From IMG/VR virus record IMGVR_UViG_3300017613_001142, positions 1-64,000 of that record: a DNA stretch of 64,000 bases; one strand, given 5' to 3'. Of this stretch, positions 2,464 through 63,398 are shown piece by piece (within the stretch, counting starts at the first letter, position 1; each line of letters begins with the position of its first letter). The notes under the pieces were generated by a model. It saw only the letters and a program-made list of their open reading frames with translations. It searched no databases and was not told where the DNA came from. Made by a program: the position numbers and the translations under genes. The stretch is from a virus.

Positions 2464-2805
2464 TTATGCCTTGGTGTTGTCGTGCCATTGTTCTCCTCGA
2501 TTTATCGCATATTCAAACAATTTCAAAGCGTCATCGAGGTATAATGCTAGAATAAAATCCGGCGTATTGCTATTATTTTCGCGCGAATATCTGTTGATTA
2601 AACTCGCAAGTTCTTTTTTAAAAGTTGTTTCTTTAGTGATCTCTTTAAAATATTCCGGGTAATTTTCAATAAATTTTCTCGGCAAATACTTTTCATCTAA
2701 AAAAGGCGGACCATTCCCTTTATAATAATATTCTCCAAATTTTTCAATGATATCACCTCTATCAAAATCCCTAAATAAATTAGTTATTACTCGATACTTT
2801 TTCAT
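2464..2805 (-). CDS. hypothetical protein (113 aa)
   Basis: ORF track. Lies between the annealase and the exonuclease. Confidence 0.7.
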   Translation of the reverse strand: MKKYRVITNLFRDFDRGDIIEKFGEYYYKGNGPPFLDEKYLPRKFIENYPEYFKEITKETTFKKELASLINRYSRENNSNTPDFILALYLDDALKLFEYAINRGEQWHDNTKA

Positions 2806-3896
2806 AATATATACCGTTTCGGTTTCTTTTCAGGAATCAAGCCATCACCTTGTAAAATTGCGAAAGCGTCCGGCGCGTTATCAGCTATGCGTTGAATTCC
2901 GATATTGCTCCACATCGGTTTCGTAATAACCTGAGTAGCAAGTTTATTTCCTGTCGTGTTTTGTAAATATCGTTTGTCGCCCATAATCACAGCCAAAGCG
3001 GATTTAATGTCCTCAACACGATCTTTAGCCTCTTTTTCAACCTCTTTCCAGCGTTTTTTTTCATTAAAAAGTTGTTCCGCTTCTTCCGCTTCTTTGCCGC
3101 CAACTATCAAGACATCATCTCGAACGTTGTCATAAATCCCTTTGATGTCATCAAAATTTTGCGGCGCGGGCGGTTTGTCAGCTTTCACAAGATTAAGAAA
3201 TTTGTCAGCGGCTTCAATTAATTTCTGTTGTATATCAATATTGGACTTAAAAACATATTGTGATTCAAAAACAGAGTCAATCAAAGCCCTGACAATAATA
3301 TTATCAATTCCGCAAACTAACGCTTGCCATTGACATTGAAGATAAACACGGAGTGGAAGACCATTCTCGGTAGGATCATCAAGGTCATAGCCGTCTTCCT
3401 GTCTACTAGATCGAAGGTTAGCAAACCGACTGCCAAGTTTAGCTTTAATTATTAATTCATCATTCAATCTAACACAATCAGGACTTGCTGTAAAGCGTTT
3501 ATCATCAGAGAATATAGAAAAACTAAACGGAATAAAATCAGTTGCTGGTTTCCAGTCTTGCGGCCTGTGGTCTTCATGCTGATAATAATCAACTTTGAAT
3601 TTATGCGCGGTTTCTTTATCGGTTAACTCTTCGATTTGACGGCTCAGAATTATCCCCTCGATAGCGTGACCAAGCGCGGCGAGAGCTGATTTTTTTTTAT
3701 CTTCTGGCTCGTCGATAATTATGGCGCGCCCGGTCATTTCCTTCCATAAATCATACGCCGTTTTATATTGTTTGACCAAGCCAAATAAAACCGGGATATC
3801 TGAACTTCCTATAGTTTTTGAACGGCGTTTATGGGAATCTGAACGATTGCGGATTATATGGAGTTTATTCATTAGGGTTAGATACGTGTTGAGCAA
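2802..3896 (-). CDS. YqaJ-like (PD-(D/E)xK) recombination exonuclease
   Basis: N-terminal IGSSDIPVLFGLVKQYKTAYDLWKEMTGR matches the YqaJ viral recombinase signature. Partner of the RecT-like gene. Confidence 0.7.
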   Translation of the reverse strand: MLNTYLTLMNKLHIIRNRSDSHKRRSKTIGSSDIPVLFGLVKQYKTAYDLWKEMTGRAIIIDEPEDKKKSALAALGHAIEGIILSRQIEELTDKETAHKFKVDYYQHEDHRPQDWKPATDFIPFSFSIFSDDKRFTASPDCVRLNDELIIKAKLGSRFANLRSSRQEDGYDLDDPTENGLPLRVYLQCQWQALVCGIDNIIVRALIDSVFESQYVFKSNIDIQQKLIEAADKFLNLVKADKPPAPQNFDDIKGIYDNVRDDVLIVGGKEAEEAEQLFNEKKRWKEVEKEAKDRVEDIKSALAVIMGDKRYLQNTTGNKLATQVITKPMWSNIGIQRIADNAPDAFAILQGDGLIPEKKPKRYIL

Positions 3897-15587: not shown

Positions 15588-16988
<1,401 letters not shown>

Positions 16989-18883: not shown

Positions 18884-19066
18884 TTAAAACTGCACGATCA
18901 TTTCATCGTCCGCCAGTTTGTCAAAACAGGAATCGCAAAGCGGCCCAATCTCATCGCCTCGCGGGCGGCCTAAATGATCAACCATCAGGAGTCCGTATAT
19001 TGACCCGTCCCCCTTTCCTGCGTTTCCTGTCGGCTCATCACAAATAATGCAAAATTCTTTTTCCAC
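18884..19066 (-). CDS. hypothetical zinc-ribbon-like protein (60 aa), GTG start
   Basis: CIICDE...CDSCFDKL. Lies in a G+C-richer island. Confidence 0.5.
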   Translation of the reverse strand: MEKEFCIICDEPTGNAGKGDGSIYGLLMVDHLGRPRGDEIGPLCDSCFDKLADDEMIVQF

Positions 19067-19122
19067 TTTCCATCCAATCCCTCGCGGGCGGTTAGACCAT
19101 TTTTCCCAGGCGGCGAAAATGG

Positions 19123-19147
19123 TTTTCAGTTAGTTCCAAAATGGAAC
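19123..19147 (-). promoter_or_regulatory. junction element with palindrome GTTCCAAAATGGAAC, copy B
   Basis: TTTTCAGTTAGTTCCAAAATGGAACA, read directly. Confidence 0.5.
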
Positions 19148-19150
19148 ACA

Positions 19151-19510
19151 CTAATCAAGCGGGAAAATCACTTTTCCGATGCGGGGATTTTGGTCTTTGA
19201 AAATTGATAATTTAACAAGCTCTTCGGCGGTCTCTTTTGACACATCGTCTAAAATAGTTTCGTGCGCGATGGTTCGCCCATCCCTGTCTGTGCAAAACAC
19301 ATAGCCGTCGGCGTCATCTATGGCCGTCAACATTTCCAAGTCCGCGGCTCCGCTGAAAGTTCCGTCGTCCCAGAGAACGGCGACGCAGGTTCTCTCAAAC
19401 AAAACGTGATCTTTCGTTTTTCTGATTTTTGCCCTAAAAACCTCGCTCACAATCACGCCGGTTTTGCCGGTTTTGTCTTTGATTCTCTGTCTATTCAACA
19501 TTTTTTTCAT
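19151..19510 (-). CDS. hypothetical protein (119 aa)
   Basis: Start moved to ATG 19510 (MKKMLNRQ), preceded by GAAAAGAGG. The track start at 19540 is a TTG inside the palindrome. Confidence 0.6.
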   Translation of the reverse strand: MKKMLNRQRIKDKTGKTGVIVSEVFRAKIRKTKDHVLFERTCVAVLWDDGTFSGAADLEMLTAIDDADGYVFCTDRDGRTIAHETILDDVSKETAEELVKLSIFKDQNPRIGKVIFPLD

Positions 19511-19514
19511 CCTC

Positions 19515-19538
19515 TTTTCAGTTAGTTCCAAATGGAAC
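19515..19538 (-). promoter_or_regulatory. junction element with palindrome GTTCCAAATGGAAC, copy A
   Basis: TTTTCAGTTAGTTCCAAATGGAACA, read directly. Confidence 0.5.
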
Positions 19539-19540
19539 AA

Positions 19541-28097: not shown

Positions 28098-28634
28098 TTA
28101 TAAGTTAAGTTTTTCAAAATATTCATCCATGATTGATTGTAATTCCCAAGTTATATAACGGAAACCACTTAATTGTTGAAACATATTACTATAAGTAATT
28201 TTCAATTTAGGTTTAATATAATTATGATGAAACCATGTCAAAGTCTGATGATTATTTTTTAAATATTTTTTGAGCTTATCACCAATTTTTTGACCAACCC
28301 GATAAGAATTATCTTGAATATTATTTGAAGTTTTACTAGATTTTCTTTGCCAGTGCTGAGTAATATTTCTATTTGTATTAAGTGTAGGCTTTAATAAGTT
28401 AATATAAAATTGTTCTCGACATCCTAAGTTTTCTTCACAGACATATTCTAAAACTTCAAACTTTATATATCCAATTTTCTGATATTGCTTTTTTAATTTA
28501 TAATTACCTGTTTTACGATGAGTTGTTAAATGGTAACGATGCTGTTTAAATCGTTTTTGCAAATCAATACTACTGCCTATATAGAATTGATCTCCAATAG
28601 TTATTTTATAAACACCTATATTGGAATCTGTCAT
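28098..28634 (-). CDS. GIY-YIG homing endonuclease
   Basis: GVYKITIGDQFYIGSSIDLQKRFKQH. Free-standing, with its own GGAGGAAAG RBS. Confidence 0.85.
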   Translation of the reverse strand: MTDSNIGVYKITIGDQFYIGSSIDLQKRFKQHRYHLTTHRKTGNYKLKKQYQKIGYIKFEVLEYVCEENLGCREQFYINLLKPTLNTNRNITQHWQRKSSKTSNNIQDNSYRVGQKIGDKLKKYLKNNHQTLTWFHHNYIKPKLKITYSNMFQQLSGFRYITWELQSIMDEYFEKLNL

Positions 28635-29225: not shown

Positions 29226-30104
29226 CTAAAAACTTATTTGCTTATTGATAGGTTTAGTTTTCCCATTAACCGAATTAATAAATTTAAACATATGCGATAC
29301 TACATCAACCGTCCAACAATTACCAATAGCTTTATAACGCGCGGAATCTGATAACCCCGATGTAAAATTATCAGACAAAGTCTGCAATCGCTCTGCTTCC
29401 AAGGGGGTGATAAAACGTAATAGTTGATCACTGATTTTTACTAAATTGCCAGTCCAGCTAGATATTTGTCGAGCTGTCATGCATATACTTTTTGGCACGT
29501 CATTTATAATGCATGAATATTTTTTAGATAATTGTTTTATTTGATTTTTACTCCACCAATTATGCCAAGTTTCACTATTTGGCTCTTTATAATTCCATTC
29601 AATAATATCTTTTGCTTTAATATTTCGATCAATCGGCTTTGTAATGCTCCAATTGCACCAATACAAACGCCGCCTTGATTGCGCTGATAGTATCGCGCTA
29701 TTAATTTTAATAGGCAGAACTCCAAGTATATCAGTAATAATATTCTCAGATTGCTTATTCATCATTACATTCTCAAGGAAAAAGTATTTCGGTTGAAAAT
29801 GTTTCAGGCAATCCACAAATTCAAAGAAAAGCTTTGACCTTGGATCATCAAAATTTAATTGTTTCCCCGCAAAACTAAAACCTTGACATGGTGATCCGCC
29901 TATTAATAAATCAATCTTCGGCAATTCCCATTTACGCCAATCGCAAACATCACCTAATCTAATTATATTAGAAAAATTATTTTGTGAAATTTGGATAGCG
30001 TGTTTATCTATTTCAGATGCGAAATAATTTGTGATGGGAAGGTTGGCGCGTTGCAGGGCAAGATAACCGCAAGAAATACCATCAAATAGGCTTAATATAT
30101 TCAT
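29226..30104 (-). CDS. DNA (cytosine-5) methyltransferase
   Basis: Motif I LSLFDGISCG, motif IV GGSPCQGFSFAG, motif VI FFLENV, motif X GNCWTV. Confidence 0.9.
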   Translation of the reverse strand: MNILSLFDGISCGYLALQRANLPITNYFASEIDKHAIQISQNNFSNIIRLGDVCDWRKWELPKIDLLIGGSPCQGFSFAGKQLNFDDPRSKLFFEFVDCLKHFQPKYFFLENVMMNKQSENIITDILGVLPIKINSAILSAQSRRRLYWCNWSITKPIDRNIKAKDIIEWNYKEPNSETWHNWWSKNQIKQLSKKYSCIINDVPKSICMTARQISSWTGNLVKISDQLLRFITPLEAERLQTLSDNFTSGLSDSARYKAIGNCWTVDVVSHMFKFINSVNGKTKPINKQISF

Positions 30105-30830: not shown

Positions 30831-30885
30831 GGCAACAATAAGAGGGGAATTTCATATATTAAACTTTATTTTTTATGGATTAGCC

Positions 30886-31122
30886 TCAAAAAACGCTTTT
30901 GCAAATCCTTTCGGAGTAATTGTTTTGGCCATAATACTTATAAACTTGCATAGCTTTTTCTTCCAACTCTTCACTAGTAAGTAAATTTAGATCAACTTTT
31001 TTCTCTTCTTCGCAATCACAGTAACAACTATAAGATTTATATCGTTTCGCCGCTATTAATTCCTCAGAATCATATAATGGCAATCCATGTATTAAGCGTC
31101 CTAGCCAATTGAAAAAATCCAT
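30886..31122 (-). CDS. hypothetical protein (78 aa)
   Basis: Start moved to ATG 31122 (MDFFNWLG), just after the upstream stop at 31124. Confidence 0.6.
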   Translation of the reverse strand: MDFFNWLGRLIHGLPLYDSEELIAAKRYKSYSCYCDCEEEKKVDLNLLTSEELEEKAMQVYKYYGQNNYSERICKSVF

Positions 31123-31123
31123 G

Positions 31124-31756
31124 CTAAAACTCATCAATCTCAACCATTTCTCTCATTCCCATAACCAAACCACTGCAATTATCACCGTAAAACAACAGTT
31201 CTTTCTTATGATCAGGAACGGCCACTTTTAATCCCGGAATATCTTTTATAGGATACAATAACGCCATGTCAATTTTTAGTCCTTCGATATAAGTTGGATA
31301 TTGTGTATAAAAACGAGTTTTTAATCCATTGCAATAAATACAATTTTCACCTCGTCCTGCAATAGTTATTTCCCCTTCGCCGTAACAGCTTAGGCATGTA
31401 GCGGAATAGTTATTATATTTTGTTTCCCAAAAAACAATCCCTTCGGCGTCGCATTCATGGCATTCTCTTTGTATCAAAAGCCCTGTTCCTTTACACTCAT
31501 CACATTCATCCGGCTTAGGTATCTTAATTTTTGGCAACGGAGAAGCGTTATTTTTATTTTTTTCTAACGCTTTAAAAGCTTTGGTTAAAAAAGCAACCAT
31601 CCATTGATTATTTTCGGATATTTTTTGATATTTCTTATCTGATTTAAAACAGATCATAGAAACATTATTAGCCGCTATTGTTTGACCTTGAAAAACAAAA
31701 GGTTCTGTGAATTCCTGTCTATCGGAATTAAGATTTAAAAAATGTCTAAAATCCAT
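31124..31756 (-). CDS. protein with DnaJ-type cysteine-rich (CxxCxGxG) zinc-finger repeats
   Basis: CDECKGTG, CHECDAEG, CLSCYGEG, CIYCNGLK. Confidence 0.65.
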   Translation of the reverse strand: MDFRHFLNLNSDRQEFTEPFVFQGQTIAANNVSMICFKSDKKYQKISENNQWMVAFLTKAFKALEKNKNNASPLPKIKIPKPDECDECKGTGLLIQRECHECDAEGIVFWETKYNNYSATCLSCYGEGEITIAGRGENCIYCNGLKTRFYTQYPTYIEGLKIDMALLYPIKDIPGLKVAVPDHKKELLFYGDNCSGLVMGMREMVEIDEF

Positions 31757-31836
31757 AATATAATAATAAAAAAGCCCAACTTCTTAAAAATAGGCAGTCC
31801 CCACTGAATAAAAAATAAGAAGTCAGGCTATATGAT

Positions 31837-32016
31837 TTAACTCAACTTATGTCCTTGCTGTCTTAGGTAAATATATAAAGACGATCTTGAAAGCCCAACT
31901 GTTTTACAAATATCTTTTACTGACATTTCAGCCTCTTCCAGATACATTTTATAGGCGATAATGGCTTTCTTTTTAGTTGATTCCAGTAATTGTTTTTCGT
32001 ACCAGGGCTTTCTCAT
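31837..32016 (-). CDS. small HTH protein (59 aa)
   Basis: Own translation MRKPWYEKQLLESTKKKAIIAYKMYLEEAEMSVKDICKTVGLSRSSLYIYLRQQGHKLS, a Hin/resolvase-type HTH pattern. Confidence 0.55.
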   Translation of the reverse strand: MRKPWYEKQLLESTKKKAIIAYKMYLEEAEMSVKDICKTVGLSRSSLYIYLRQQGHKLS

Positions 32017-32124
32017 ATTTTGATTTGTTCTTTGAGATTATTTTAAATAAATTCGGCGATTCTGTGAGTCATCAAAACCGCCGACATTGCGAAAGAGTCG
32101 CTTTCTCAAACACAACTAAAGAGT

Positions 32125-32153
32125 AGAATATGTTAATTTTTTGAATCTGTCAA
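32125..32153 (-). promoter_or_regulatory. sigma70-like promoter TTGACA-N17-TATTCT with ~105-nt leader
   Basis: -35 at 32153-32148 inside ATTGACAGATT, -10 at 32130-32125. Confidence 0.5.
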
Positions 32154-32167
32154 TCATTAAATTTACT

Positions 32168-32467
32168 TTAAGGCGCGATTCCAAAATCATATTCGCTATC
32201 GTTTTTAATCCAATCCCAATATTTTTGCGGCGGTTCTCCTAGACTAAATCGTTCCTCTTTTTTTCCTCCACTCCATTCAGCTATTTTCAGTATAATCGGA
32301 GTTCCTTTTAATATTCGCGCTATTTGATCAATTAACCATGTTTTATGGTGTTCTCCATCTATATATTGATATTGTTTAAACCAAAAATTAATCCAGTCCA
32401 ATCTGGAATACATGGCATATTTCGTTGTGTGCGTATCAATGACTTTTTCGCCTAAATATACTGACAT
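32168..32467 (-). CDS. hypothetical protein (99 aa)
   Basis: ORF track. Confidence 0.7.
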   Translation of the reverse strand: MSVYLGEKVIDTHTTKYAMYSRLDWINFWFKQYQYIDGEHHKTWLIDQIARILKGTPIILKIAEWSGGKKEERFSLGEPPQKYWDWIKNDSEYDFGIAP

Positions 32468-32553
32468 GGTATGATTTATTTTAATCGAATTTTATTTATA
32501 CTAATAGACGTGTAAATGTGTCTAAAACTTGATATATTTTATTGCTAATAGCA

Positions 32554-32567
32554 AAATAGCTGTCAAT
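32554..32567 (-). promoter_or_regulatory. cassette element copy a (ATTGACAGCTATTT)
   Basis: Read directly. This copy diverges after TATTT. Confidence 0.5.
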
Positions 32568-32573
32568 GAAATA

Positions 32574-32813
32574 TTACTCTTCTTCGTAATCTTTAACATT
32601 TGGCGGCGCGGGCGGCTCTTCCATTTCCATCCAATAAGTTATGCAGTGATCGTCTCCACGTTGCGCTGGTATCAGCGGGAACGGGTTGCCATCGTCGTTT
32701 GTGTTTTCGCCGTCCCAAATACACGGCCAAACTGATTCGTCAAAATCATTGAATCCCCAAAAGTCCTCATCCATTGGCGGGTTATCTCTGCAAACTTTTT
32801 TCCACTTTTTCAT
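32574..32813 (-). CDS. hypothetical acidic Trp-rich protein (79 aa)
   Basis: ORF track. Preceded by element copy b. Confidence 0.65.
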   Translation of the reverse strand: MKKWKKVCRDNPPMDEDFWGFNDFDESVWPCIWDGENTNDDGNPFPLIPAQRGDDHCITYWMEMEEPPAPPNVKDYEEE

Positions 32814-32822
32814 CTCCTCCTC

Positions 32823-32841
32823 CCGTTAAATAGCTGTCAAT
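32823..32841 (-). promoter_or_regulatory. cassette element copy b (ATTGACAGCTATTTAACGG) plus purine tract plus ATG
   Basis: Read directly. Confidence 0.55.
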
Positions 32842-32848
32842 AAAAATA

Positions 32849-33169
32849 TTAGCGCTTATTTTTTCTTCGAGATTCCGCGTCCCATCGACAAAAATCAATA
32901 AATGAATCAAAGCAGTCACCAAAAGTTATATAGCGCTGATATCTGGCTTGATTGCGCGTCGGTTTTCTAATTGCGCCCATACCGCAATATTTAACTTTCC
33001 AGGTTGGATGTGCGTTTAAAATAACACCAGGCTTGTCTTTATCGAAATTGACGCCGATATAATGCCCGCGGTCATCCGCGATAATGCCGGGCTTTCCGTC
33101 AACAATAACGACTCTTCCGACGCAGGCCGGAACGCCGTAATTTTCTTTTACATATTCGCAATCACTCAT
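32849..33169 (-). CDS. hypothetical protein (106 aa)
   Basis: ORF track. Preceded by element copy c. Confidence 0.7.
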   Translation of the reverse strand: MSDCEYVKENYGVPACVGRVVIVDGKPGIIADDRGHYIGVNFDKDKPGVILNAHPTWKVKYCGMGAIRKPTRNQARYQRYITFGDCFDSFIDFCRWDAESRRKNKR

Positions 33170-33185
33170 CTCTCTCTCCTCTTAT

Positions 33186-33204
33186 CCGTTAAATAGCTGT
33201 TAAT
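33186..33204 (-). promoter_or_regulatory. cassette element copy c (ATTAACAGCTATTTAACGG)
   Basis: Read directly. Confidence 0.55.
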
Positions 33205-33210
33205 GAAATG

Positions 33211-33366
33211 TTACCCAGTCACATCATCTAAAATTATAACCACGAAACTTCCCGCCGGGTCATCCATCGCGCTTTTAGGCGGCGCCCAAATCACTTGTAC
33301 TTTTATGCCCTTGAGCGCATAATCAATGGCTATCTCCACCGCTCTGTCTATGATTTCTTGCTCCAT
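33211..33366 (-). CDS. hypothetical small protein (51 aa)
   Basis: Own translation MEQEIIDRAVEIAIDYALKGIKVQVIWAPPKSAMDDPAGSFVVIILDDVTG. Preceded by element copy d. Confidence 0.45.
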   Translation of the reverse strand: MEQEIIDRAVEIAIDYALKGIKVQVIWAPPKSAMDDPAGSFVVIILDDVTG

Positions 33367-33375
33367 CTCCTCCTC

Positions 33376-33394
33376 TCGTTAAATAGCTGTCAAT
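33376..33394 (-). promoter_or_regulatory. cassette element copy d (ATTGACAGCTATTTAACGA)
   Basis: Read directly. Part of a ~60-bp duplication with copy f. Confidence 0.55.
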
Positions 33395-33400
33395 AAAATA

Positions 33401-33604
33401 TTACCTCAGGTGGTCGCTTAATTTCTCAAACTTCATCCCCGGAGGAGCCTCAATCAATTTTAATTTTTCTCCTTCGCAAAACCCGGCCGCCATTCCCAAA
33501 AACAAACCGCTGTAATTTTGGTCTAGCGCGACCACATACAATTTACCGTCAATCTGAACGCTGAGACTTGCTCCCTCTATTTTATTTAAATCGATTTCTG
33601 ACAT
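33401..33604 (-). CDS. hypothetical protein (67 aa)
   Basis: ORF track. Preceded by element copy e. Confidence 0.6.
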   Translation of the reverse strand: MSEIDLNKIEGASLSVQIDGKLYVVALDQNYSGLFLGMAAGFCEGEKLKLIEAPPGMKFEKLSDHLR

Positions 33605-33617
33605 TTCCTCTCCTCTC

Positions 33618-33636
33618 TCCGTTAAATAGTTGTCAA
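33618..33636 (-). promoter_or_regulatory. cassette element copy e (ATTGACAACTATTTAACGG)
   Basis: Read directly. Confidence 0.55.
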
Positions 33637-33643
33637 TTACCCA

Positions 33644-33838
33644 TCAATTACCGCCAGCCCAATAAAACCGGCCGTTTCGCTCTTCGATTTGCCAATTTAT
33701 CAATAACTCGTCAATGAAACTTTTGATCTCTTCCGCCGTGTTATCGAAGCGCCTGAAAGTTTCCAAGACTCCGGCGCGGTCAAACTGACCGGATTGCCAC
33801 TCGATTAAGTGGCGGGCGTTGGCTTTTTGGATTTTCAC
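33644..33838 (-). CDS. hypothetical protein (64 aa)
   Basis: ORF track. Confidence 0.6.
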   Translation of the reverse strand: MKIQKANARHLIEWQSGQFDRAGVLETFRRFDNTAEEIKSFIDELLINWQIEERNGRFYWAGGN

Positions 33839-34107
33839 TTGCGGTTTTTTCTTCTTGCCGATTGAGTTACCTTCCGTCGCGCCTTCTTTGCTTTGGGGGC
33901 TTTGCGATTTTTAAGGCTCGGCTTTAGTTTTCTTGCCGCGCCTGCCAATGTAATAGCGGCGGCAAGCTTCAATGCCGCCTGGTTTGTCTTGGCTCCCAAA
34001 ATAAAATCAAGGTGATCTTTTGACCCAGACCGACCCGTGGCGGCGTCTAATTTTTCTCCCAGTTCTTTTGTGTCCATTTTCTCATTCTCAAACAAACCGC
34101 ATATCAT
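33835..34107 (-). CDS. hypothetical protein with highly basic C-terminus (90 aa)
   Basis: ORF track. KNRKAPKAKKARRKVTQSARRKNRK tail. Confidence 0.55.
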   Translation of the reverse strand: MICGLFENEKMDTKELGEKLDAATGRSGSKDHLDFILGAKTNQAALKLAAAITLAGAARKLKPSLKNRKAPKAKKARRKVTQSARRKNRK

Positions 34108-34178
34108 CTTCCCGACTCCGGGAAAATCAAGCGATTTCAGTTATTTGTTTATTCGCGGGCTAGTCGCGGTTCTAGTCA

Positions 34179-34747
34179 TTACGGATTTGCCTCAAAGAAA
34201 GCCCGAGCAAATCCCGGCGGCGTGATCGCGCGCCTTTCAGTCCTCGAAAGACTGCCATAATATTCAGGGTGAATCTCTTTGCTCTTCAGCATTGAAAATT
34301 TTATTACGCCTGTAGGCTTGACCGCAACGCCTGCTTGTGGAAATTTAAAATTCCCCCACAAACAAGTTTTCTTTTGATAATTATCCCCGAACTCCCATGG
34401 GTCAAACCTAAAACTTGGCTTTCCAAGCCACTTTTTCAAATAGCCGTCGGGATTTTCCAGCACCCACCACTTTGGTTGGCAGGTTAAAATTATCCGTATA
34501 CATGCGCTGACAATCTCAAGCCCCGCGCGAAAATTATGCTCATATTTTCCTTTGCCGTGGAAATGTTTAGCATAAGAAAACTCTGTGCAGGGAGGAGCCG
34601 CCAGCACTCCGTGGACATTGTCGGGCGGCGCGTATAAACAAACATCGTTTTCGGGAAGCGTAATAAGCCGAACATCATATAGCCGGCACTTCTGTAGGGA
34701 GCACTCCATGAGCCGGTTCCCCCGCATAGATCAAGTATTTTTTTCAT
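34179..34747 (-). pseudogene. short C5-cytosine-methyltransferase-like gene split by a frame change near 34677-34681
   Basis: Frame A gives MKKILDLCGGTGSWSAPYRSAGY (motif I-like). Frame B gives DVRLITL...AAPPCTEFS (motif IV-like), WWVLENP (motif VI-like) and RRAITPPGFARAF. The junction lies at a TATAT tract. Confidence 0.55.
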
Positions 34748-34808
34748 TTAATTATGGCGAATTCGCTTTATTTAAAGTTGATTTCGACACGGTTAAAAAC
34801 TCATTTGG

Positions 34809-35033
34809 TTAATCCAATTTCATTGGCTTCATAAACCAATATTTTAGACGATTGTATTCTGCACATAATTCATAGCACCGATAAGAAGGAGTGGCGCGTA
34901 ATCCATCAAGCATCCGCATCTTATATTGGATTGAATCATACTCCTGCTTAATCAAATCAAGTTTTTGCAGTCTCTTGATTGTTTCAGGAAAGCAAAAAGT
35001 TAATATTTTGCCTATTATAAAGCCTATTTTCAT
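34809..35033 (-). CDS. hypothetical protein (74 aa)
   Basis: ORF track. Confidence 0.6.
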   Translation of the reverse strand: MKIGFIIGKILTFCFPETIKRLQKLDLIKQEYDSIQYKMRMLDGLRATPSYRCYELCAEYNRLKYWFMKPMKLD

Positions 35034-35146
35034 ATTAAAAACTCATCTGGTTTGCTTCTGATTCGATTCGCTTGGCGGCGATCTCGCAATACTCTTCCTC
35101 TTTTTCGCAAAGTATCTACCGCTTTGTCTATGATTTCTTGCTCCAT
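35030..35146 (-). CDS. 38-aa ORF sharing its first 10 codons with the 33211..33366 ORF
   Basis: MEQEIIDKAVDTLRKRGRVLRDRRQANRIRSKPDEFLI. ATGA overlap with the downstream gene. Preceded by element copy f. Confidence 0.3.
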   Translation of the reverse strand: MEQEIIDKAVDTLRKRGRVLRDRRQANRIRSKPDEFLI

Positions 35147-35155
35147 CTCATCATC

Positions 35156-35174
35156 CCGTTAAATAGCTGTCAAT
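35156..35174 (-). promoter_or_regulatory. cassette element copy f (ATTGACAGCTATTTAACGG)
   Basis: Read directly. Confidence 0.55.
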
Positions 35175-35175
35175 G

Positions 35176-35213
35176 AAAATATCCGCCAACACATATCAAG
35201 CGACGGCGGATAT
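35176..35213 (-). terminator. hairpin ATATCCGCC-N17-GGCGGATAT followed by TTTCATT, possible terminator
   Basis: Read directly. The U-tract is weak. Confidence 0.4.
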
Positions 35214-35233
35214 AATATATAGGAGTTTAAATT

Positions 35234-35326
35234 ATGTCTGAAAAGACAAGTATTATCATATGTGATATGTGGTTAATTGTCAATCCAATAATTACTAGTT
35301 ATAAATCATTTACGATTTGTACTTGA
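35234..35326 (+). CDS. 30-aa hydrophobic plus-strand ORF with strong RBS
   Basis: TAGGAGTTTAAATT-ATG. MSEKTSIIICDMWLIVNPIITSYKSFTICT. Overlaps the 3' end of the convergent gene 35299..35502. Confidence 0.3.
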   Translation: MSEKTSIIICDMWLIVNPIITSYKSFTICT

Positions 35327-35502
35327 TAAATGTAATGACCACATCTAAAATAACATTTGACGCGATTTTCTTCTTCAAGTTTAGCAACTTCTTTCAACGT
35401 TATATCGGCTCTTAATTTAAAATGATTTACAATATCAACTGAATCTAATTGTTTCTCTGAGTTGGATATATAATCAAAAATCGTTTCTTTTAACCATTCC
35501 AT
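35299..35502 (-). CDS. hypothetical protein (67 aa)
   Basis: Start moved to ATG 35502 (MEWLKETIF), GGTGGG upstream, just after the upstream stop at 35507. Confidence 0.6.
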   Translation of the reverse strand: MEWLKETIFDYISNSEKQLDSVDIVNHFKLRADITLKEVAKLEEENRVKCYFRCGHYIYQVQIVNDL

Positions 35503-35506
35503 ATGA

Positions 35507-36001
35507 TTAATCCCACCAATATTCATAATGTTTACTGAAAATTTTAAAGAATAACTCTTGATCATATTTTTTAATTAGCTTCGCTTTTTTATGCGCTCTA
35601 TCTCGGTCTTTTCGCGCTTGCTCGTCATCTTGTTCTGTTTTTACCAATTTAGGCGTAATAGTTATAGGGGTTAATCCGCGTTTATCCTCTTTTCCATAAA
35701 TTATTTGCAATTTTCCCCACCGTTCTTCGCATTCAATCGAAGCGTTTGATATGTAGTCGTCTTCAATCATTCTGTGTAAAAGATGAACGCAAATTTTTAA
35801 ATTTTTAACGTTCCTGAGTCTTGAACTTTCGATCACATTCGTATTATCGATGTTATCCCAAAAGGTCAACATATCTTGAAGCTTAAAACGCATGATTTCA
35901 AGAAGATAATTATAATCCCACTCGTAGGTATTATAACCGCGCAAAAACCATTTACAGCCGCGTTTAAGACGGGTTATAATGTCTTTTATTTTGTATAACA
36001 T
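35507..36001 (-). CDS. hypothetical protein (164 aa)
   Basis: ORF track. Confidence 0.7.
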   Translation of the reverse strand: MLYKIKDIITRLKRGCKWFLRGYNTYEWDYNYLLEIMRFKLQDMLTFWDNIDNTNVIESSRLRNVKNLKICVHLLHRMIEDDYISNASIECEERWGKLQIIYGKEDKRGLTPITITPKLVKTEQDDEQARKDRDRAHKKAKLIKKYDQELFFKIFSKHYEYWWD

Positions 36002-36053
36002 TTATTATCCTTCATATATTTCATAAGAAACCGGATACCAATGGAGAAACAAA

Positions 36054-36275
36054 TCAACGGAAATCACAATCAATCCCGCTGCCATAGCTAAGTTTTGTTA
36101 CAACGCATCGGGTTTTCTTCCCGTCGTCAAGTTGAATATCAAAAATATAACCACCTTGAAATTTATACTTTTTAACAGTTTTGGGTCTTGCGTAATCAAC
36201 CGCGCCCAAAGGACTCCAAAGAGCGACGAACAACCAAAAAGCGGCTATCGCAATAACCAGGATGTTTGTTTTCAT
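36054..36275 (-). CDS. secreted/membrane-anchored small protein
   Basis: MKTNILVIAIAAFWLFVALWSPLGA signal-like N-terminus. Confidence 0.65.
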   Translation of the reverse strand: MKTNILVIAIAAFWLFVALWSPLGAVDYARPKTVKKYKFQGGYIFDIQLDDGKKTRCVVTKLSYGSGIDCDFR

Positions 36276-37291
36276 ACAACTATTTTATAAGGAATTTCCG
36301 GCATACTTCCAGACAAAATAGCATTCCCACATGTTATTCGTCCCAAATCTTCATATTCAGACGCAAGAAATACAATCACATCATACCCAGCGGCAATTAA
36401 TCCTTTTTCATATTCAGCATATGGATAATACTGAGTAAAATCACCGTCAGTTTTAATTCCATTGGATTCAGCTGTATGAGTTTTATGCATTGGCGTCAAC
36501 TTTACTAAATAGTGATCAGGCGAAAAGAAATCCAATAAAATTTGTGGATCAATTTCGTAATCAGCAACCGCAAAATTCAAAGTTATCTTGCGCCCTATCG
36601 GCGTTATGCCTCCCATAATTTTTGAGATTTGAGCCAGTCTTAAAGCGTTACCGGAGAACATCTCCGCGCGTTCATTTTCATTTGTTGAATTGATGCTTAA
36701 TTGCAATCCGGCGTTTCCTTTGTACATTCGGTTTTTAATTCTCATCCAAGTGTGGATGAAAGTTTTAAGCCAAATATTTTTCTTTGGCATCATCGTTGAA
36801 ACAACCGGATGAACTTTATATTCATGATCAATATGTTCCTTAAGCCACTTGGCGCAATCCAAAACATTCGGGTTAAAAGTTGGTTCTCCCATTCGCGCGA
36901 AATGCATATTTAGTCTATTAGAATATTCGATTTCAGGATGGCACATTAACCCTGATAAAATTTGTCCAGTCATATCATTGAATGTCGCATTTTTACCGCT
37001 CCCGACCTTTGGGACATCACAAAAATTACACCGCATTGAACAACCATATTGAGTGCTGATTGTGATAACCCATTTATCGGTGAGCGGCATCATTTTTCCG
37101 TGTTGAAATGGTTTCGGTTCTTCAGTAAGTCCAAGAAAATCAGCCTTTATATTTGTTTCTTTTCCATAGTCTCCAACTGAAACAAATTCTAATTCTCCCT
37201 TGCTTCCTTGACAACAAACTATATTCCCGGTTGGAACTTCAATGTTTTTGGTTATTGGCAAACCAGTTCTGTTTTGTTCTCTTTCTTTCAT
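36272..37291 (-). CDS. radical SAM enzyme, RlmN/Cfr-like
   Basis: ISTQYGCSMRCNFCDVPKVGSGKNATFNDMTGQIL (CxxxCxxC), FARMGEPTFNPNVL, C-terminal RITCGNA. Confidence 0.75.
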   Translation of the reverse strand: MKEREQNRTGLPITKNIEVPTGNIVCCQGSKGELEFVSVGDYGKETNIKADFLGLTEEPKPFQHGKMMPLTDKWVITISTQYGCSMRCNFCDVPKVGSGKNATFNDMTGQILSGLMCHPEIEYSNRLNMHFARMGEPTFNPNVLDCAKWLKEHIDHEYKVHPVVSTMMPKKNIWLKTFIHTWMRIKNRMYKGNAGLQLSINSTNENERAEMFSGNALRLAQISKIMGGITPIGRKITLNFAVADYEIDPQILLDFFSPDHYLVKLTPMHKTHTAESNGIKTDGDFTQYYPYAEYEKGLIAAGYDVIVFLASEYEDLGRITCGNAILSGSMPEIPYKIVV

Positions 37292-57245: not shown

Positions 57246-60176
57246 TTACAAATATTTACCGTCGTTTTCAAATATAGCTAAACTATCATCAGCTAACAGA
57301 TTCATCAAGGATTTTAAATCTTCCTTATTTTCAACTTTCCCGCTAACCATATGCGGCTGTTTATTCGGCATAAGATTCATTTTATCAATTGTGATTCCAA
57401 ACTGAAAACTATACCCGCCTTGGCCATTAGTCATAAAATTAACTGTGTCGCTAATATATGGGAGAGAATCAAGCGCAAATCGCGTCTGTTTCAACTCAAT
57501 TAAATGACGCCAACCTTCAAGTATCTCTTTACACCTTTCAAGCATTTGCGGCGTGATTTGGCGTGTTTGTTCAAACTCAAATCTGTTTATATGATCCAAA
57601 TCACGAATAGTCAACGCCCTCCCAAGAAACCGCTCAGGATATTTTTGTTTATCTCGCAACATTAACGGCCAATTACGTTGAAACCTATCACGCCTAACAG
57701 CTTCATTTTCATAACCAACATGCATTATAGACGCTGTTTGATCGTTAAAAATATAAGTTTCGCCAGTTCCTTTATTCAACCCGTTTTCAGGATGTTCATG
57801 CACCACGCCATAAAAACGTATTCCGTTGAAATTTCTAAATAATCTACATGGAAGATCGGTTTTACTGACTCCAACAGGCTCCGCACCGAAATGATGCTGT
57901 GGGATAGCGTAAGCTTTAAAGTGATTATCTCGCAAATACGGTTTTATTTTATCCGCCCATGTCCACATTTCATCGTCGTCAATCCACAAAATCCAATCAT
58001 GTTGGGCTTTGATAATCGTGGCGTTTCGCGCTTCTTCAAAACCTATTTCTATCGGACTTGCGTTTGCAAAAATAGTCACATTTGGAAACTGAGACGCGCT
58101 TTTATATGTCAAGCAATCCTCTAATTTACCGGATAACGTGCCTTGATCAACCGCAATTATAAATTCATCGACAAACCCGTTAATAGATTGTAATGTTTTA
58201 TGAATTGTCCCACAATTAGCTTTAGTAATTAGACACGCTGAAACTTTATCACGCGGATTTTGTTGGCGCGCTTTACGATCATAATCAATGATTTTAAAAC
58301 CGTTGGTAATATCAGACGTTCGAGTCCATGACCACAAATAAAATCCGAATTTATCGCCGTTTTGTTCAGGATGATTTACAAAAAGAGTTTCTTTGTCTAT
58401 TTTTCTGGCTAAAATTTCTTCAATATCAGAGTGTTCAAACTGGTGTAGATGTTGACGCTTGTAGGGATAGCGATCAAAGGACAAAGCTTCCCAATGTCCA
58501 TACGGTGTGCTAAGGAAACATTTTCCGCTGTATTTTACTGATTTCTCCATATCAGTTAGAAATTTTTGATAATCCCAAATATGCTCTAAAACTTCGCCAA
58601 CTATGACGGCGTCATATTTTTCAGATTCGAGTCTTGACGGATCAATACATTGAAATAATGAAACATTAGCAAGATTATTTTTAGCAATAAATTCGTTGCC
58701 AATCTCGATTTGTTTCCCATCTATGTCGCATCCCTCGAAAATCAAATCGGGGAACGTAGCGGCTAGAGCTGTTGTCACATGCCCAACACAACACCCATAA
58801 TCAAGCACACGACTACCCGGCGGCAATTGCGATATTTCATTAACTAACGGTCTCACACGCGGAATATTCAGCGTTTGTTGGTATGCTCCAAGCCCGTGGC
58901 TATCATCATTTTTTATATGATAATCAGCCATTTCCGCATAAAAATCAGTTGTGTCCGATAGATCGCGTCCTAGCGTCAAATAATTTTCAGCAAGAAACTG
59001 ATTATGTCCAAGGTTATGTTTCGCGTTCAATTCATTCGCGGCGGCTACATCTGAATTGTAAATAAAATGCTGAAATAGTCGTTCTTTTTTCTCTGTCAAC
59101 CTATTAAAATCTTTTTCAATCAATCGTTCTAATTTATTGACAGTATTATCCAAACCATATTCTTTCGATTTTTCAATAGCTTTATTATAAAGCGCGTCGT
59201 ATTTACTTGGTTTATCGCGCAACATCATAACCGCGTTTACAAACTCATTTGGTTGAGACCAAAATACACCCGCGTTATTTAATGTTTCTGGAAGCGCGGC
59301 GGTTTTCGTTGTTAAAAACGGTGTTCCGGCGGCTTGCTGTTCCATTGCGGTTATGCAACTAACCTCTTCAAAATCAGTTGGATAAATGTGAATCCATGCT
59401 TTTTTCATCAACTCAGCGAGTTCTTGCTTGCTGAGAAAACCGTAATTTCTAACGTTCGGTAATATCTGACATCTCTGCCACAACTGATTATATAACGGCG
59501 CGGATTGTGGTGTGGTATTATCATACCCGACGACGACTAATTGAATTTCAGGATCAATTTTATATAATTGTTCCATGATCCCGCCTTCGCCGACTAAATT
59601 AATTAATCCGCGTTCAGGTCGGGAACTGTAAATCATGATTTTGCTTTGCTTTTTCTCTTCCAGATCACCCGGCTGACACATCTCAAGATCAACACCATTA
59701 GGAATAAAATCAATATAATTTTCATTAATCCCATAAATCCGTTTGACTTGATCAACGTGAAACTGAGACACACACAGCACTTTATTAACGTTCCACATCA
59801 TGCCGTTGATATGCGGCGAATAACGTTTCAACGCTAGATCGTGAGTCCAAAAATAGTTCAACTTGGAAGCGTAATTGGCGTTAAAAATCCCGGCTGCTCT
59901 TTGCGCTAAAATGACATCAGTCGGTATATTTAGCGCGTGTTTCTGGAAGTTATCTCCGTATGGTGTTTCTTGCGAAACTTGACCAATTGGGATATATTCA
60001 ACGCCGTCCGTTATTGATATTTCAGGCGCATTGCAAAAACATTGTACTTTATGCCCTCGTTTGGCAAGTCCTTTTGCCACGTAGTAACCCATAGTTTCAG
60101 AGCCACCGAGAGACTTTCCTTGTCTGATTGTGTTACCGTCGAACGGTAATCCGGGGATATATGTTGTAATTTTCAT
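57246..60176 (-). CDS. three-domain enzyme: GT-B (GT4-like) glycosyltransferase, class I SAM methyltransferase, GT-A (GT2-like) glycosyltransferase
   Basis: N-terminus LGGSETMGYYVAKGLAKRGHKV and EEVSCITAMEQQAAGTP. Middle RVLDYGCCVGHVTTALA...AVIVGEVLEHI. C-terminus VSACLITKANCG...WILWIDDDE. Confidence 0.8.
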   Translation of the reverse strand: MKITTYIPGLPFDGNTIRQGKSLGGSETMGYYVAKGLAKRGHKVQCFCNAPEISITDGVEYIPIGQVSQETPYGDNFQKHALNIPTDVILAQRAAGIFNANYASKLNYFWTHDLALKRYSPHINGMMWNVNKVLCVSQFHVDQVKRIYGINENYIDFIPNGVDLEMCQPGDLEEKKQSKIMIYSSRPERGLINLVGEGGIMEQLYKIDPEIQLVVVGYDNTTPQSAPLYNQLWQRCQILPNVRNYGFLSKQELAELMKKAWIHIYPTDFEEVSCITAMEQQAAGTPFLTTKTAALPETLNNAGVFWSQPNEFVNAVMMLRDKPSKYDALYNKAIEKSKEYGLDNTVNKLERLIEKDFNRLTEKKERLFQHFIYNSDVAAANELNAKHNLGHNQFLAENYLTLGRDLSDTTDFYAEMADYHIKNDDSHGLGAYQQTLNIPRVRPLVNEISQLPPGSRVLDYGCCVGHVTTALAATFPDLIFEGCDIDGKQIEIGNEFIAKNNLANVSLFQCIDPSRLESEKYDAVIVGEVLEHIWDYQKFLTDMEKSVKYSGKCFLSTPYGHWEALSFDRYPYKRQHLHQFEHSDIEEILARKIDKETLFVNHPEQNGDKFGFYLWSWTRTSDITNGFKIIDYDRKARQQNPRDKVSACLITKANCGTIHKTLQSINGFVDEFIIAVDQGTLSGKLEDCLTYKSASQFPNVTIFANASPIEIGFEEARNATIIKAQHDWILWIDDDEMWTWADKIKPYLRDNHFKAYAIPQHHFGAEPVGVSKTDLPCRLFRNFNGIRFYGVVHEHPENGLNKGTGETYIFNDQTASIMHVGYENEAVRRDRFQRNWPLMLRDKQKYPERFLGRALTIRDLDHINRFEFEQTRQITPQMLERCKEILEGWRHLIELKQTRFALDSLPYISDTVNFMTNGQGGYSFQFGITIDKMNLMPNKQPHMVSGKVENKEDLKSLMNLLADDSLAIFENDGKYL

Positions 60177-61538: not shown

Positions 61539-63398
61539 TTATATTAATCCATGTTGTTTAAATTTTCGTTCATAATCAATCATTCCTATTTCATTATTTT
61601 CAGAGCGCGTCCACTCCCATAAATAATTGGCGATAGGAATATTTTTAATCGGATAAGTCGGGATTTTAACAATCATAACATCCTGTTTATGCCCGATCAT
61701 TTCCTTTAAATCTTCAGGTTCATAATGATGAATATGTTCTCTATGCAATTCGTCCAATTCATCCGATAATATCTCAAGCGGGCCAGAAGGCGTTGTGATA
61801 TGCATCCGTCCACCAATCTTTAAACTTCTTTCGAGTCCTTCTAAAAACTCTTTATATTCAAGGATATGCTCTAATGTTTCTGTACAAATTACAAAATCAT
61901 ATTTTTCTGTTTCAAGTTTTTCAGGATCATCGCATTCAAAATACACAACATTATGGATATTTTCTTTTTCACTGAATTCATTAGCGATTTTCAATTTTAT
62001 CGGACTAATATCCGCGCCTTCAAACTTCAAAAGCGGAAACATTTTAGCTAATAAAACAGTTACTTCCCCGATTGAGCATCCATAATCCAAAACCAACGAT
62101 TCCGGTTCTAAATTTGACATATTATGAATTAAATGTTGAATGCGCGGAAATTTCATCAATCGGTCATACTCTCCCAAAACTTTCTGGAAGCCGCCTTTTT
62201 CAACTGTTTCATCAGCTACTTGATCTTGAAAATTCTTAGTGGCTCGAAAACTTTGATATAAAGTTTCAAAAGTTTCACGTAAAAAATCATCTTGTCCTAG
62301 ATTGCATTTTTCGTTTAAAATTTTCGCGGCGACTATATCGGAATTATAAATAAAACGATCAAATATTTTTTGCGGTTCAACTGACTGTTTTTCTAATGTC
62401 AAAAGTTTTGGAATCCAATATTTTTCAACCACTTCGTCCCATGTCATAGCTTTTGACCACGCGCCCGCGCTGTCATTCTCATATTTCAAACTTCCATGGA
62501 CGAATTTAGGATAAGCGATATATTCACTTCCAACCGTTTCCGATAAAGCCCCGATTTTATTAACGATTGGAACACAGCCGCAATACTGAGCTTTGACAGC
62601 GTTTAAACAAAACAATTCTGAGTCAGGATTATTTAGCGGTAAACACCAATATTGAGCTTTCCAATATTCGCGTTCGATTTCGTCTTTATTTAATTGTCCT
62701 AAATATTCAATCCCATCCTGTTTTAGAAGCGAATCAATTTGATTTTTAAATTGTCTGACTGGCATATTTCTGAAATCAAAATGCCGCCAACCATATGCAA
62801 CTTTTAATGTTAGTTCAGGATGTTTTTGTTTGATGTGTTTCCAATCGGTAAGTAATTGCAATAATCCCCTATCCGGTGAGCTACAATATAGCATTGTATT
62901 AGGGATTTTTTCACACTTGTTTTTATCAAGCGATTCAATATCAACACCAAGCGGAAAAGCATATTGTTTTTCAGACGGGACAAACACATTTCGACGACGC
63001 TGATAATGAGATATATTCACAAAAGCGTCTATCGAGTTGATATTAAAGTCATGCGTTTGTTGATTCATCCCCCAACTTGGCTCAATATCGGCGGTCAAGT
63101 GTATGTTTTTCTTTGCTTTCGCTCCTTTTAACCAAGGGGAATTGTCTTTAAATGTAATAAATATTTCATCAGCGTTACATTTCGCGCTTTCTCGCGGAAT
63201 ATAATGGACGCCGTTATGCAATTTAATCTCTTGTGTTCTCGCTGAATGATAAACAATCACGTCATAATCAGCGCGTTTTAACGCTTCAGCCAATAACACA
63301 ACCAGTTCTTCAGACCCACCAAGAAATTTATCAAGGTCAGTTGGTTCCCATGCGGGATAAACTTGATTTGTAAATATTTTAATTTTTTCTTTGCTCAT
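61539..63398 (-). CDS. two-domain enzyme: GT-B-like glycosyltransferase plus class I SAM methyltransferase (paralogue of 57246..60176)
   Basis: LGGSEELVVLLAEALKRADYDV. LVLDYGCSIGEVTVLLA...FVICTETLEHI. Linker FDRFIYNSDIVAAKILNEKCNLGQDDFL versus FQHFIYNSDVAAANELNAKHNLGHNQFL. Confidence 0.8.
   Translation of the reverse strand: MSKEKIKIFTNQVYPAWEPTDLDKFLGGSEELVVLLAEALKRADYDVIVYHSARTQEIKLHNGVHYIPRESAKCNADEIFITFKDNSPWLKGAKAKKNIHLTADIEPSWGMNQQTHDFNINSIDAFVNISHYQRRRNVFVPSEKQYAFPLGVDIESLDKNKCEKIPNTMLYCSSPDRGLLQLLTDWKHIKQKHPELTLKVAYGWRHFDFRNMPVRQFKNQIDSLLKQDGIEYLGQLNKDEIEREYWKAQYWCLPLNNPDSELFCLNAVKAQYCGCVPIVNKIGALSETVGSEYIAYPKFVHGSLKYENDSAGAWSKAMTWDEVVEKYWIPKLLTLEKQSVEPQKIFDRFIYNSDIVAAKILNEKCNLGQDDFLRETFETLYQSFRATKNFQDQVADETVEKGGFQKVLGEYDRLMKFPRIQHLIHNMSNLEPESLVLDYGCSIGEVTVLLAKMFPLLKFEGADISPIKLKIANEFSEKENIHNVVYFECDDPEKLETEKYDFVICTETLEHILEYKEFLEGLERSLKIGGRMHITTPSGPLEILSDELDELHREHIHHYEPEDLKEMIGHKQDVMIVKIPTYPIKNIPIANYLWEWTRSENNEIGMIDYERKFKQHGLI

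Follow-up and report, generated by a model that had tools for sequence, protein, structure and literature searches.

Several kinds of short repeated sequence at the starts of phage and virus genes have been described. The promoter-early stem-loop (PeSL) cassettes of T4-type phages carry complete strong σ70 promoters together with an adjacent stem-loop terminator, and the cassettes are transcriptionally autonomous (Arbiol et al. 2010, PMC2839356; Comeau et al. 2014, PMC4122927). In cluster K mycobacteriophages, start-associated sequences (SAS/ESAS) consist of a 13-bp GGGATAGGAGCCC-type repeat with a Shine–Dalgarno (SD) core that lies 3–7 bp from the start codon; there are 11–19 copies across the non-structural half of the genome, and they are conserved cluster-wide (Pope et al. 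2011, PMC3203893). The intergenic repeats of halovirus HF2 are active archaeal promoters that occur genome-wide and are conserved in sequence and position across the virus genus (Russ et al. 2021, PMC8707807). Here we analyse a 19-nt element, ATTGACAGCTATTTAACGG, that is repeated at the junctions of small genes in 2.7 kb of a 64,000-nt stretch of viral DNA (hereafter, the window; positions 1–64,000 of IMG/VR virus record IMGVR_UViG_3300017613_001142). We regard the element as a variant within phage regulatory and recombination cassettes, best read as a promoter-derived intercistronic linker in an acquired island of small genes. Sites of another kind, the stoperators of cluster A mycobacteriophages, are 13–14 bp in length, occur in tens of copies in each genome and serve as binding sites for a temperate phage's repressor.

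Anatomy of the intercistronic unit

Five full copies of the element are present (32823–32841, 33186–33204, 33376–33394, 33619–33637 and 35156–35174), each with 0 or 1 mismatch and all on the minus strand, as are all other features of the array and its immediate flanks described below unless stated otherwise. Shuffled sequences lead to an expectation of 0.01 matches, and none of 100 shuffles reached five. Mismatches in the 19-nt core amount to 3 of 95 positions over the five copies (95–100% identity among them), which makes the core the best-conserved part of the gap between genes. The initial annotation had listed six 19-bp copies with one or two substitutions; the sixth (copy a, 32554–32567) has only the first 14 nt and the upstream TAATATTTC in common with the others and is divergent after that, and the position given for copy e (33618) is corrected to 33619. 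The annotated layout of a short purine tract and then the ATG of a small open reading frame (ORF) was borne out at all five full copies, as was a duplication of about 60 bp that includes the first ten codons of two ORFs.

The full copies occupy 34–42-nt gaps that separate co-directional small ORFs, always in the same orientation and between a stop codon and the SD tract and ATG of the next gene. The element begins 4–9 nt after the preceding stop codon, except for copy f, which is preceded by a hairpin. From its end, a purine-rich SD tract of 9–16 nt leads to the ATG of ORFs of 38, 67, 51, 106 and 79 aa, and the gaps are homologous among copies along their whole length, which takes in TAATATTT, the 19-mer and the purine tract. 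In the direction of transcription, copy f (35156–35174, no mismatches) heads c38 with a weakened SD tract (GGGATGATGAG). Unit e (33605–33643, element with one mismatch) heads c67 (33401–33604), unit d (33367–33400, one mismatch) heads c51 (33211–33366), unit c (33170–33210, a TTAACA variant) heads c106 (32849–33169) and unit b (32814–32848, no mismatches) heads c79 (32574–32813). The truncated copy a (32554–32576 with its flank) consists of TAATATTTC and ATTGACAGCTATTT, followed by AT-rich, native-like DNA. Copies d and f belong to a 64-nt duplication (33335–33398 and 35115–35178, 91% identity) that takes in the element, the SD tract and the first 10–11 codons of c51 and c38.

The distance from TTGACA to the start codon had been judged too short for a −10 box and a leader, and we find the same: 21–28 nt separate the end of TTGACA from the ATG, and the hexamers 16–19 nt past it (GGAGAT, GAGATG, AGGAGA and similar) fall inside the SD tract and ATG. 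None of the five compact copies is listed in a promoter scan of 31000–36500. Taken together, these results rule out the copies as σ70 promoters of the genes that they head. A promoter-like arrangement is seen only in two places: in truncated copy a, with TAAAAT at 19 nt, and in one copy of the relative described below, with TATAAC at 17 nt. The start codon of c79 is confirmed by an N-terminal MKKWKK that is conserved in the same relative. We also rejected the idea that the stop-codon TAATAT serves as a −10 box, as the upstream coding ends have no conserved −35 sequence.

The best minus-strand site in the scanned interval, with 11 of 12 matches, is a canonical σ70 promoter, TTGACA-N17-TATGAT (35255–35283), which lies just upstream of the array and is probably the only one that serves the array operon. 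The sequence TATCACATATGATA (35255–35275), a palindrome of 14 bp that is almost perfect, overlaps its −10 box and is a possible operator for a dimeric regulator. In the leader, directly 5′ of copy f, a hairpin (ATATCCGCCG...TGGCGGATAT; 35179–35213) is followed by TTTTC, a short U-run; the fold of 35128–35260 has an energy of −30.2 kcal/mol (z −1.96). Copy f is the only one preceded by a strong hairpin of this kind. Before copy e, a hairpin lies within the coding end of c64, and junctions b, c and d fold no more stably than shuffled sequences (z 0.1 to 1.4).

A compositionally foreign island and its promoter-bearing relative

We assembled 102,106 nt of the phage genome, with no mismatches, from the window and four loci walked by exact-protein look-ups; an identical c106 protein is present on two JGI contigs (96,997 and 104,166 nt) from sample 3300017527. 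At up to 3 mismatches to the 17-mer, the motif is found on neither strand of the other ~99 kb, and all matches lie within 32550–35173. The element is thus confined to the 2.7-kb array rather than randomly scattered, and the observation itself is confirmed. Searches with the exact 17-mer give single chance-level matches only, with no contig carrying two or more copies, in 185,579 reference genomes, IMG/VR and the metagenome contigs of JGI, and a gapped junction pattern gives only chance matches in IMG/VR. Megablast and blastn searches with the region detected no DNA-level relative among INPHARED phages, and tblastn of ten ORFs (six cassette ORFs, c99, p88, p164 and p210) against the same collection recovered homologues of c99 and p210 only. 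There is neither synteny nor the motif at loci around the flanking 339-aa gene, c106 and the methyltransferase gene; 50 c106 loci and the five closest c106 or methyltransferase contexts lack the motif and the other cassettes; and c79 and c67 have no relatives in IMG/VR.

Seven contiguous genes (32574–34747) have a G+C content of 0.43–0.48 (z +1.6 to +2.9) and a G+C content at third codon positions (GC3) of 0.40–0.585, compared with 0.353 ± 0.045 and 0.305 ± 0.065 for the 98 other genes. The cassettes had been described as G+C-richer than the rest of the window, which is true of these seven but not of c38 and c74 (34809–35146), with values of 0.41 and 0.33. The translation signals also have their own style: GGGAGGAGGAG abuts the ATG in the island, whereas 39 of 94 native genes have a short GGAG-type SD, typically GGAGtttaaaaATG, with ~9 nt after the GGAG. 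Judged by composition, horizontal acquisition of a foreign island of small accessory genes, 2.2–2.6 kb in length, is the most likely explanation, and copy a marks its 3′ edge.

The cassette proteins are not paralogues, as all-against-all BLASTP returns only the 11-aa match between c38 and c51; tandem gene duplication was accordingly rejected as the source of the repeats. The families that we searched (c106, the methyltransferase and c79) all occur elsewhere as circulating families. For example, c106 belongs to a widespread phage family with 538 homologues at 60–78% identity, in phages with G+C contents from 0.30 to 0.70, and c79 has 19 cluster representatives.

Of all the searches made, only an exhaustive HMMER search with c79 led to an informative relative. 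Its closest homologue (P0261, 67% aa identity) is encoded on a 2,114-nt contig, L132, which has a G+C content of 0.44 and also encodes a Lin1244_N replication protein 43% identical to that of the window. L132 carries three motif copies that have diverged from those of the window. Copy 1 (TAATTC-TTGACAGCTATTTTTTTAACC, containing TTGACAGCTATTT) lies 3′ of one ORF. Copy 2 (TAATATTC-TTAACAACTATTAACC-AGAGGATGAG-ATG) stands directly before the c79 homologue in the same compact layout, with no −10 box. Copy 3, after c79, reads TAATATTTC-TTGACAGCTTTAATATTTGTGAT-TATAAC and begins TAATATTTC-TTGACAGCT; it is a complete σ70 promoter, TTGACA-N17-TATAAC, followed by a leader of ~26 nt with an SD sequence, and truncated copy a of the window is its positional counterpart. 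Exact TTGACAGCT 9-mers occur twice in the 2.1 kb, compared with ~0.016 expected by chance.

The window and L132 are homologous at the nucleotide level (75% over 312 nt) from the unit upstream of c79 into the copy downstream, and the genes that flank c79 differ on both sides. Cassette boundaries therefore coincide with motif copies in this one comparison. The same comparison suggests that the 19-mer represents the −35 hexamer, with the beginning of the spacer, in a promoter family from a higher-G+C lineage, and that the compact, promoter-less form is old enough to be common to genomes that are ~25% divergent in nucleotides. The 19-mer itself is ~68% identical to the orthologous copy in L132 (~6 of 19 positions differ). 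The near-identity of the five window copies could reflect gene conversion, recent spread in a closely related population or selection exerted by a lineage-specific binding factor, for which the predicted winged-helix protein c64 is the obvious candidate.

The explanation that we prefer, and hold with even confidence, is that the unit is a promoter-derived intercistronic module that provides standard translation starts within one operon and serves as a recombination linker, PeSL-like in its working. The 19-nt element would be the conserved 5′ half of a σ70-type promoter family used by a higher-G+C phage lineage, made up of a stop codon, a T-tract, the −35 hexamer TTGACA and the initial 11 nt of the spacer. 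This half-promoter would have been fused, at five junctions, directly to a long purine SD, giving a module of ~35–45 nt with no room for a −10 box or leader. The module would have arrived with the island, which would be transcribed as one operon from the canonical promoter at 35283–35255. In the mRNA, each module may act as an unstructured, AU-rich translation start with a strong SD for its own cistron. In the DNA, the modules may act as direct repeats of 24–64 bp through which homologous recombination swaps, duplicates or removes unrelated small genes, with the RecT/YqaJ pair of the phage itself as the recombination system. RecT/YqaJ-class systems work on homologies of this order. Three footprints are consistent with recombination at or near the modules: the duplication shared by copies d and f, the break in copy a at the G+C transition and the breakpoints between the window and L132. 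The sequences themselves show the anatomy of the units, their confinement to the island, its foreign composition, the missing −10 box, the relationship to a promoter in L132 and the match of cassette boundaries to copies; we infer transcription as an operon, the gain for translation and the mechanism of recombination.

Comparison with PeSLs separates what is alike from what is not. Like PeSLs, the element is a short and conserved intergenic repeat, related to promoters, and has small ORFan genes on either side of its copies in a variable region that core modules enclose. Related genomes cease to be homologous at the repeats in either case (here in a single comparison, on both sides of c79), and either kind of repeat is proposed as a homologous-recombination linker with which cassettes are inserted, deleted or swapped. 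PeSLs are complete promoters and carry a terminator, whereas five of the six copies described here lack a −10 box and junctions b, c and d have no significant stem-loop. As it lacks these two defining features, the element is not a PeSL, and the cassettes here would have to be co-transcribed. Moreover, PeSLs are spread over many hyperplastic regions of T4-type myoviruses, whereas this element is limited to one 2.7-kb island in a siphovirus-like phage of ~100 kb. The suggestion of cassette shuffling at a recombination junction, as with PeSLs, is therefore supported as far as function goes, given that homology with L132 is bounded by copies, the cassettes are unrelated, the c106 and methyltransferase families occur in many other phages with other neighbours and no motif, and a 64-nt footprint remains.

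The cluster K SAS resemble the element in being asymmetric, lineage-specific and placed in one orientation directly upstream of the starts of unrelated non-structural genes. They differ in sequence and position: the 19-mer lies 5′ of the SD, contains a −35 hexamer, ends 9–16 nt from the ATG and occurs as 5–6 copies in 2.7 kb. Its copies also all lie within a single imported island, and they differ in sequence between the two genomes in which it occurs. The HF2 repeats likewise form intergenic families (29–58 bp) upstream of genes and contain promoter motifs, but the compact copies described here cannot be promoters of the genes that they head. Integron attC sites were rejected, because no IntI-type tyrosine recombinase is present among the called genes and the element lacks the inverted-repeat structure (R″-L″/L′-R′); ATTTAAC fits RYYYAAC only as a 7-nt coincidence.

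Several observations weigh against a promoter-derived linker. Only one short relative, L132, was found, and so cassette turnover rests on a single comparison; the evidence base as a whole is one genome and one 2-kb relative. The contrast between 95–100% identity among the window copies and ~68% identity to L132 equally fits selection by a lineage-specific binding factor. Any help to translation could come from the SD tract rather than from the 19-mer. Given a RecT of the phage's own, deletion between direct repeats should be frequent, so that their persistence would need either recency or selection. The first three genes of the island (the methyltransferase gene, c90 and c64) have no module.

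Competing explanations for the element

The alternative that survives best, although we consider it doubtful, is an asymmetric 19-bp operator or stoperator-type site that is bound by c64 or, less likely, by the 59-aa helix-turn-helix (HTH) protein encoded beyond the array. The bound protein would weaken or time the transcription that reads through into the four or five downstream cassettes, or would mask their adjacent ribosome-binding sites. The level of conservation, with 3 of 95 core positions mismatched within the genome and ~6 of 19 differing in L132, is the pattern expected from co-evolution with a lineage-specific factor. The single orientation and the short intergenic gaps are also found in cluster A stoperators (cited in PMC3203893), which are similarly asymmetric and oriented with transcription; here, however, the copies are local and no repressor or integrase module is seen. 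The gene for c64 (33644–33838) is directly upstream of the first internal copy, and both c64 and the element are confined to the island. Structure prediction gives modest confidence that c64 is a winged-helix protein: its top Foldseek matches are winged-helix domains, but the best E value is a weak 4 × 10−3, from a single-sequence model with a pLDDT of 69, and c64 has no match in Pfam or PHROG. No c64 homologue is encoded in the 690 nt upstream of c79 in L132. Furthermore, the flanks (TAATATTT and the purine tract) are conserved together with the core, as expected of a duplicated segment rather than of a discrete binding site.

Less probable again is that the copies are pure relics, non-functional remnants of the intergenic promoters of the donor that look conserved only through the recent arrival of the island and its duplications. 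The G+C content of the island has not drifted toward that of the host phage, the array is present in no other genome of the three large collections, and there are signs of decay in the form of the frameshifted methyltransferase gene, the chimeric c38 with its weakened SD and the c74 insertion. Against this, five unrelated genes each bear the same compact unit, and the compact layout before c79 must have persisted over substantial evolutionary time, because it is common to L132 despite ~25% nucleotide divergence.

We give slightly less weight still to a cis-element that acts at the RNA level, with AUUGACAGCUAUUUAACGG in the polycistronic mRNA as the site of a translational repressor or enhancer, or of an endoribonuclease that cuts the transcript into monocistronic mRNAs. 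The element has a constant place directly 5′ of each SD, on the coding strand only, and is single-stranded and AU-rich in all predicted folds. There is precedent in the start-associated sequences, which are conserved asymmetric repeats a few nucleotides from the starts of non-structural genes (PMC3203893). Set against this, the element does not keep a constant spacing from the ATG (9–16 nt), and the relatives of the motif in L132 lie in DNA promoter positions, pointing to an origin at the DNA level. A conserved RNA structure or known RNA family was rejected, as the folds are unstructured, without covariation, and Rfam has no match for the element; a trans-acting antisense RNA was rejected because the 102 kb contain no second, complementary sequence that could encode one.

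More speculative, and improbable in our view, is a platform for gene capture that needs no dedicated recombinase: a phage lineage would maintain a standard promoter-derived junction, behind which promiscuous small genes from unrelated phages would enter one operon time and again by RecT-type short-homology recombination, with the core kept homogeneous by c64, which would bind it to regulate or to target recombination. Such a platform would be an analogue of the integron in a virulent-type phage.

A dedicated promoter, raised in the initial annotation as one of the single-subunit RNA polymerase type, is very unlikely. T7, T3 and SP6 promoters consist of 17 nt followed by GGGAGA, and the layout ATTGACAGCTATTTAAC|GGGAGG resembles them, with an own copy for each small gene, so that a 17-nt block and initiating GG(G)AG could be read by a phage single-subunit polymerase, a host polymerase taken over by the phage or an alternative sigma factor; but there is no usable −10 box, the called genes of the 102,106 nt (~2 kb of the 104-kb contig lie outside) include neither an RNA polymerase nor a sigma factor, with no RNA_pol match and no unexplained ORF of at least 600 aa, the motif is neither used at transcription units across the genome nor present in two or more copies on any contig in the collections searched, and its homologue in L132 is the −35 region of ordinary σ70 promoters. 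The only additional candidate transcription regulator outside the window is a 305-aa protein with a LuxR/GerE-type N-terminal HTH (E = 3 × 10−7; L102:7575–8492, minus strand).

Genomic surroundings and significance

The genome that carries the island is that of a siphovirus-like tailed phage of ~100 kb; the large ORFs are all on the minus strand. The window encodes RecT (1323–2462), YqaJ (2802–3896), an SNF2 helicase, DnaB, glutamate dehydrogenase, a tape measure protein and a 1,320-aa tail fibre. Outside the window are genes for terminase, a Mu-like portal, ThyX, GMP synthase, SSB, PurM, helicases, ribonucleotide reductase and RNA ligase, and no integrase is found among the called genes. The largest ORFs are those for the tail fibre, the tape measure, glycosyltransferase and methyltransferase fusions, the portal and ribonucleotide reductase. 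The two fusion proteins, both very large (976 and 619 aa; 57246–60176 and 61539–63398), combine glycosyltransferase and S-adenosylmethionine-dependent methyltransferase domains and lie inside the structural block, an unusual cargo for a tailed phage. A helicase at least 90% identical to the 491-aa helicase of the phage is encoded on a separate 18-kb JGI contig (P0125), and therefore a close relative of the phage exists in public data.

Within the array, c38 (35030–35146) is a chimeric or truncated ORF, the N terminus of which was copied from c51 and the frame of which is broken by c74. The c74 segment (34793–35052) contains an AT-rich gene (34809–35033, G+C 0.33) between 18-nt direct repeats of AACCARATGAGTTTTTAA (34793–34810 and 35035–35052). 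When the DNA between these repeats is taken out, an ORF of 50 aa re-forms whose end lies 4 nt upstream of the methyltransferase ATG, which indicates that the region is actively remodelled; c74 appears to be an insertion event separate from the element modules. The first G+C-rich gene (34179–34747) encodes a small C5-cytosine DNA methyltransferase and is split by a single extra base (TAT-A-TGATG) at 34679. The repaired protein (188 aa) aligns along its full length with homologues of 188–193 aa at 70–78% identity, out of 6,890 homologues, and the frameshift would be either a fresh pseudogene or an assembly error. It is followed by c90 (33835–34107), a G+C-rich ORF with a strongly basic C terminus and no element upstream, and then by c64, which is also G+C-rich and has a GTG start that overlaps the end of c90. 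The predicted fold of c106 is an SH3-like barrel with two helices and has no relative in the PDB. Pfam, PHROG and PADLOC searches returned no functional match for any cassette.

Downstream of the island, c99 (32168–32467) has native G+C content, homologues at no more than 58% identity and its own promoter-like site, TTTACA-N16-TAAAAT (32489–32516). The 59-aa HTH gene (31837–32016) matches HTH_7 at 23.8 bits, exactly the Pfam threshold, and has native G+C content and its own promoter, TTGACA-N17-TATTCT (32125–32153). Between this promoter and the gene, an attenuator- or terminator-like hairpin (32053–32084) has a 12-bp stem followed by ATTTATTT. An Rfam L10_leader match at 31759–31885 is sub-threshold (34.8 bits compared with 44) and probably due to chance. 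The gene had been described as a separately promoted HTH gene that follows the array; it is an HTH gene with its own promoter, but it does not adjoin the array, from which c99 and the hairpin separate it. In an acr–aca operon, the HTH (Aca) gene shares the operon of the anti-defence genes, lies immediately 3′ of them and autoregulates their promoter. For the same reasons, together with its native composition and the lack of a functional match for any cassette, the proposed likeness to an acr–aca island finds no support.

The phage also appears to have a family of promoter and 5′ stem-loop cassettes of its own, distinct from the island element. Approximately 10–12 such modules, on both strands, consist of a GG/TG-TTGACA-N16–18-TATAAT-like promoter, followed first by TTCAACA and a short hairpin (such as TCGCGataaCGCGA) and further on by AAATTAAATAA. 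They lie near 39177, 38773, 13187, 1025 and 744 on the minus strand, near 13937, 18506, 48741 and 54428 on the plus strand, and at genome coordinates 72656, 76026 and 96050. Other G+C-rich patches are found at 18884–19540 (two small ORFs, 0.45–0.49) and 15588–16964 (the glutamate dehydrogenase gene, 0.43); none has the element, and so these are likely to be independent acquisitions. An ORF at 28098–28634 (minus strand, G+C 0.25) has a GIY-YIG-like N terminus (GVYKITIGDQFYIGSS...), is a probable homing endonuclease and adjoins a second, intact C5-methyltransferase gene (29226–30104). An AT-rich remnant of 17 codons, KTITPKGFAKAFFEANP (30876–30926, minus strand), is 76% identical to the C terminus of the same small methyltransferase family as the island gene and lies 3.3 kb downstream of the G+C-rich copy; it is apparently what is left of an older copy that was almost wholly deleted.

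If the element is a promoter-derived linker, the shuffling of cassettes by linkers would not be peculiar to T4-type myoviruses but would also take place in an unrelated, siphovirus-like phage of ~100 kb. A stripped-down module, made of half a promoter and a ribosome-binding site, would make captured genes cistrons of one operon rather than autonomous units. It would also provide a testable sequence handle on the way in which phages build up islands of small accessory genes with possible roles in host takeover or anti-defence, and the same motif logic could serve to find such islands in metagenomes.

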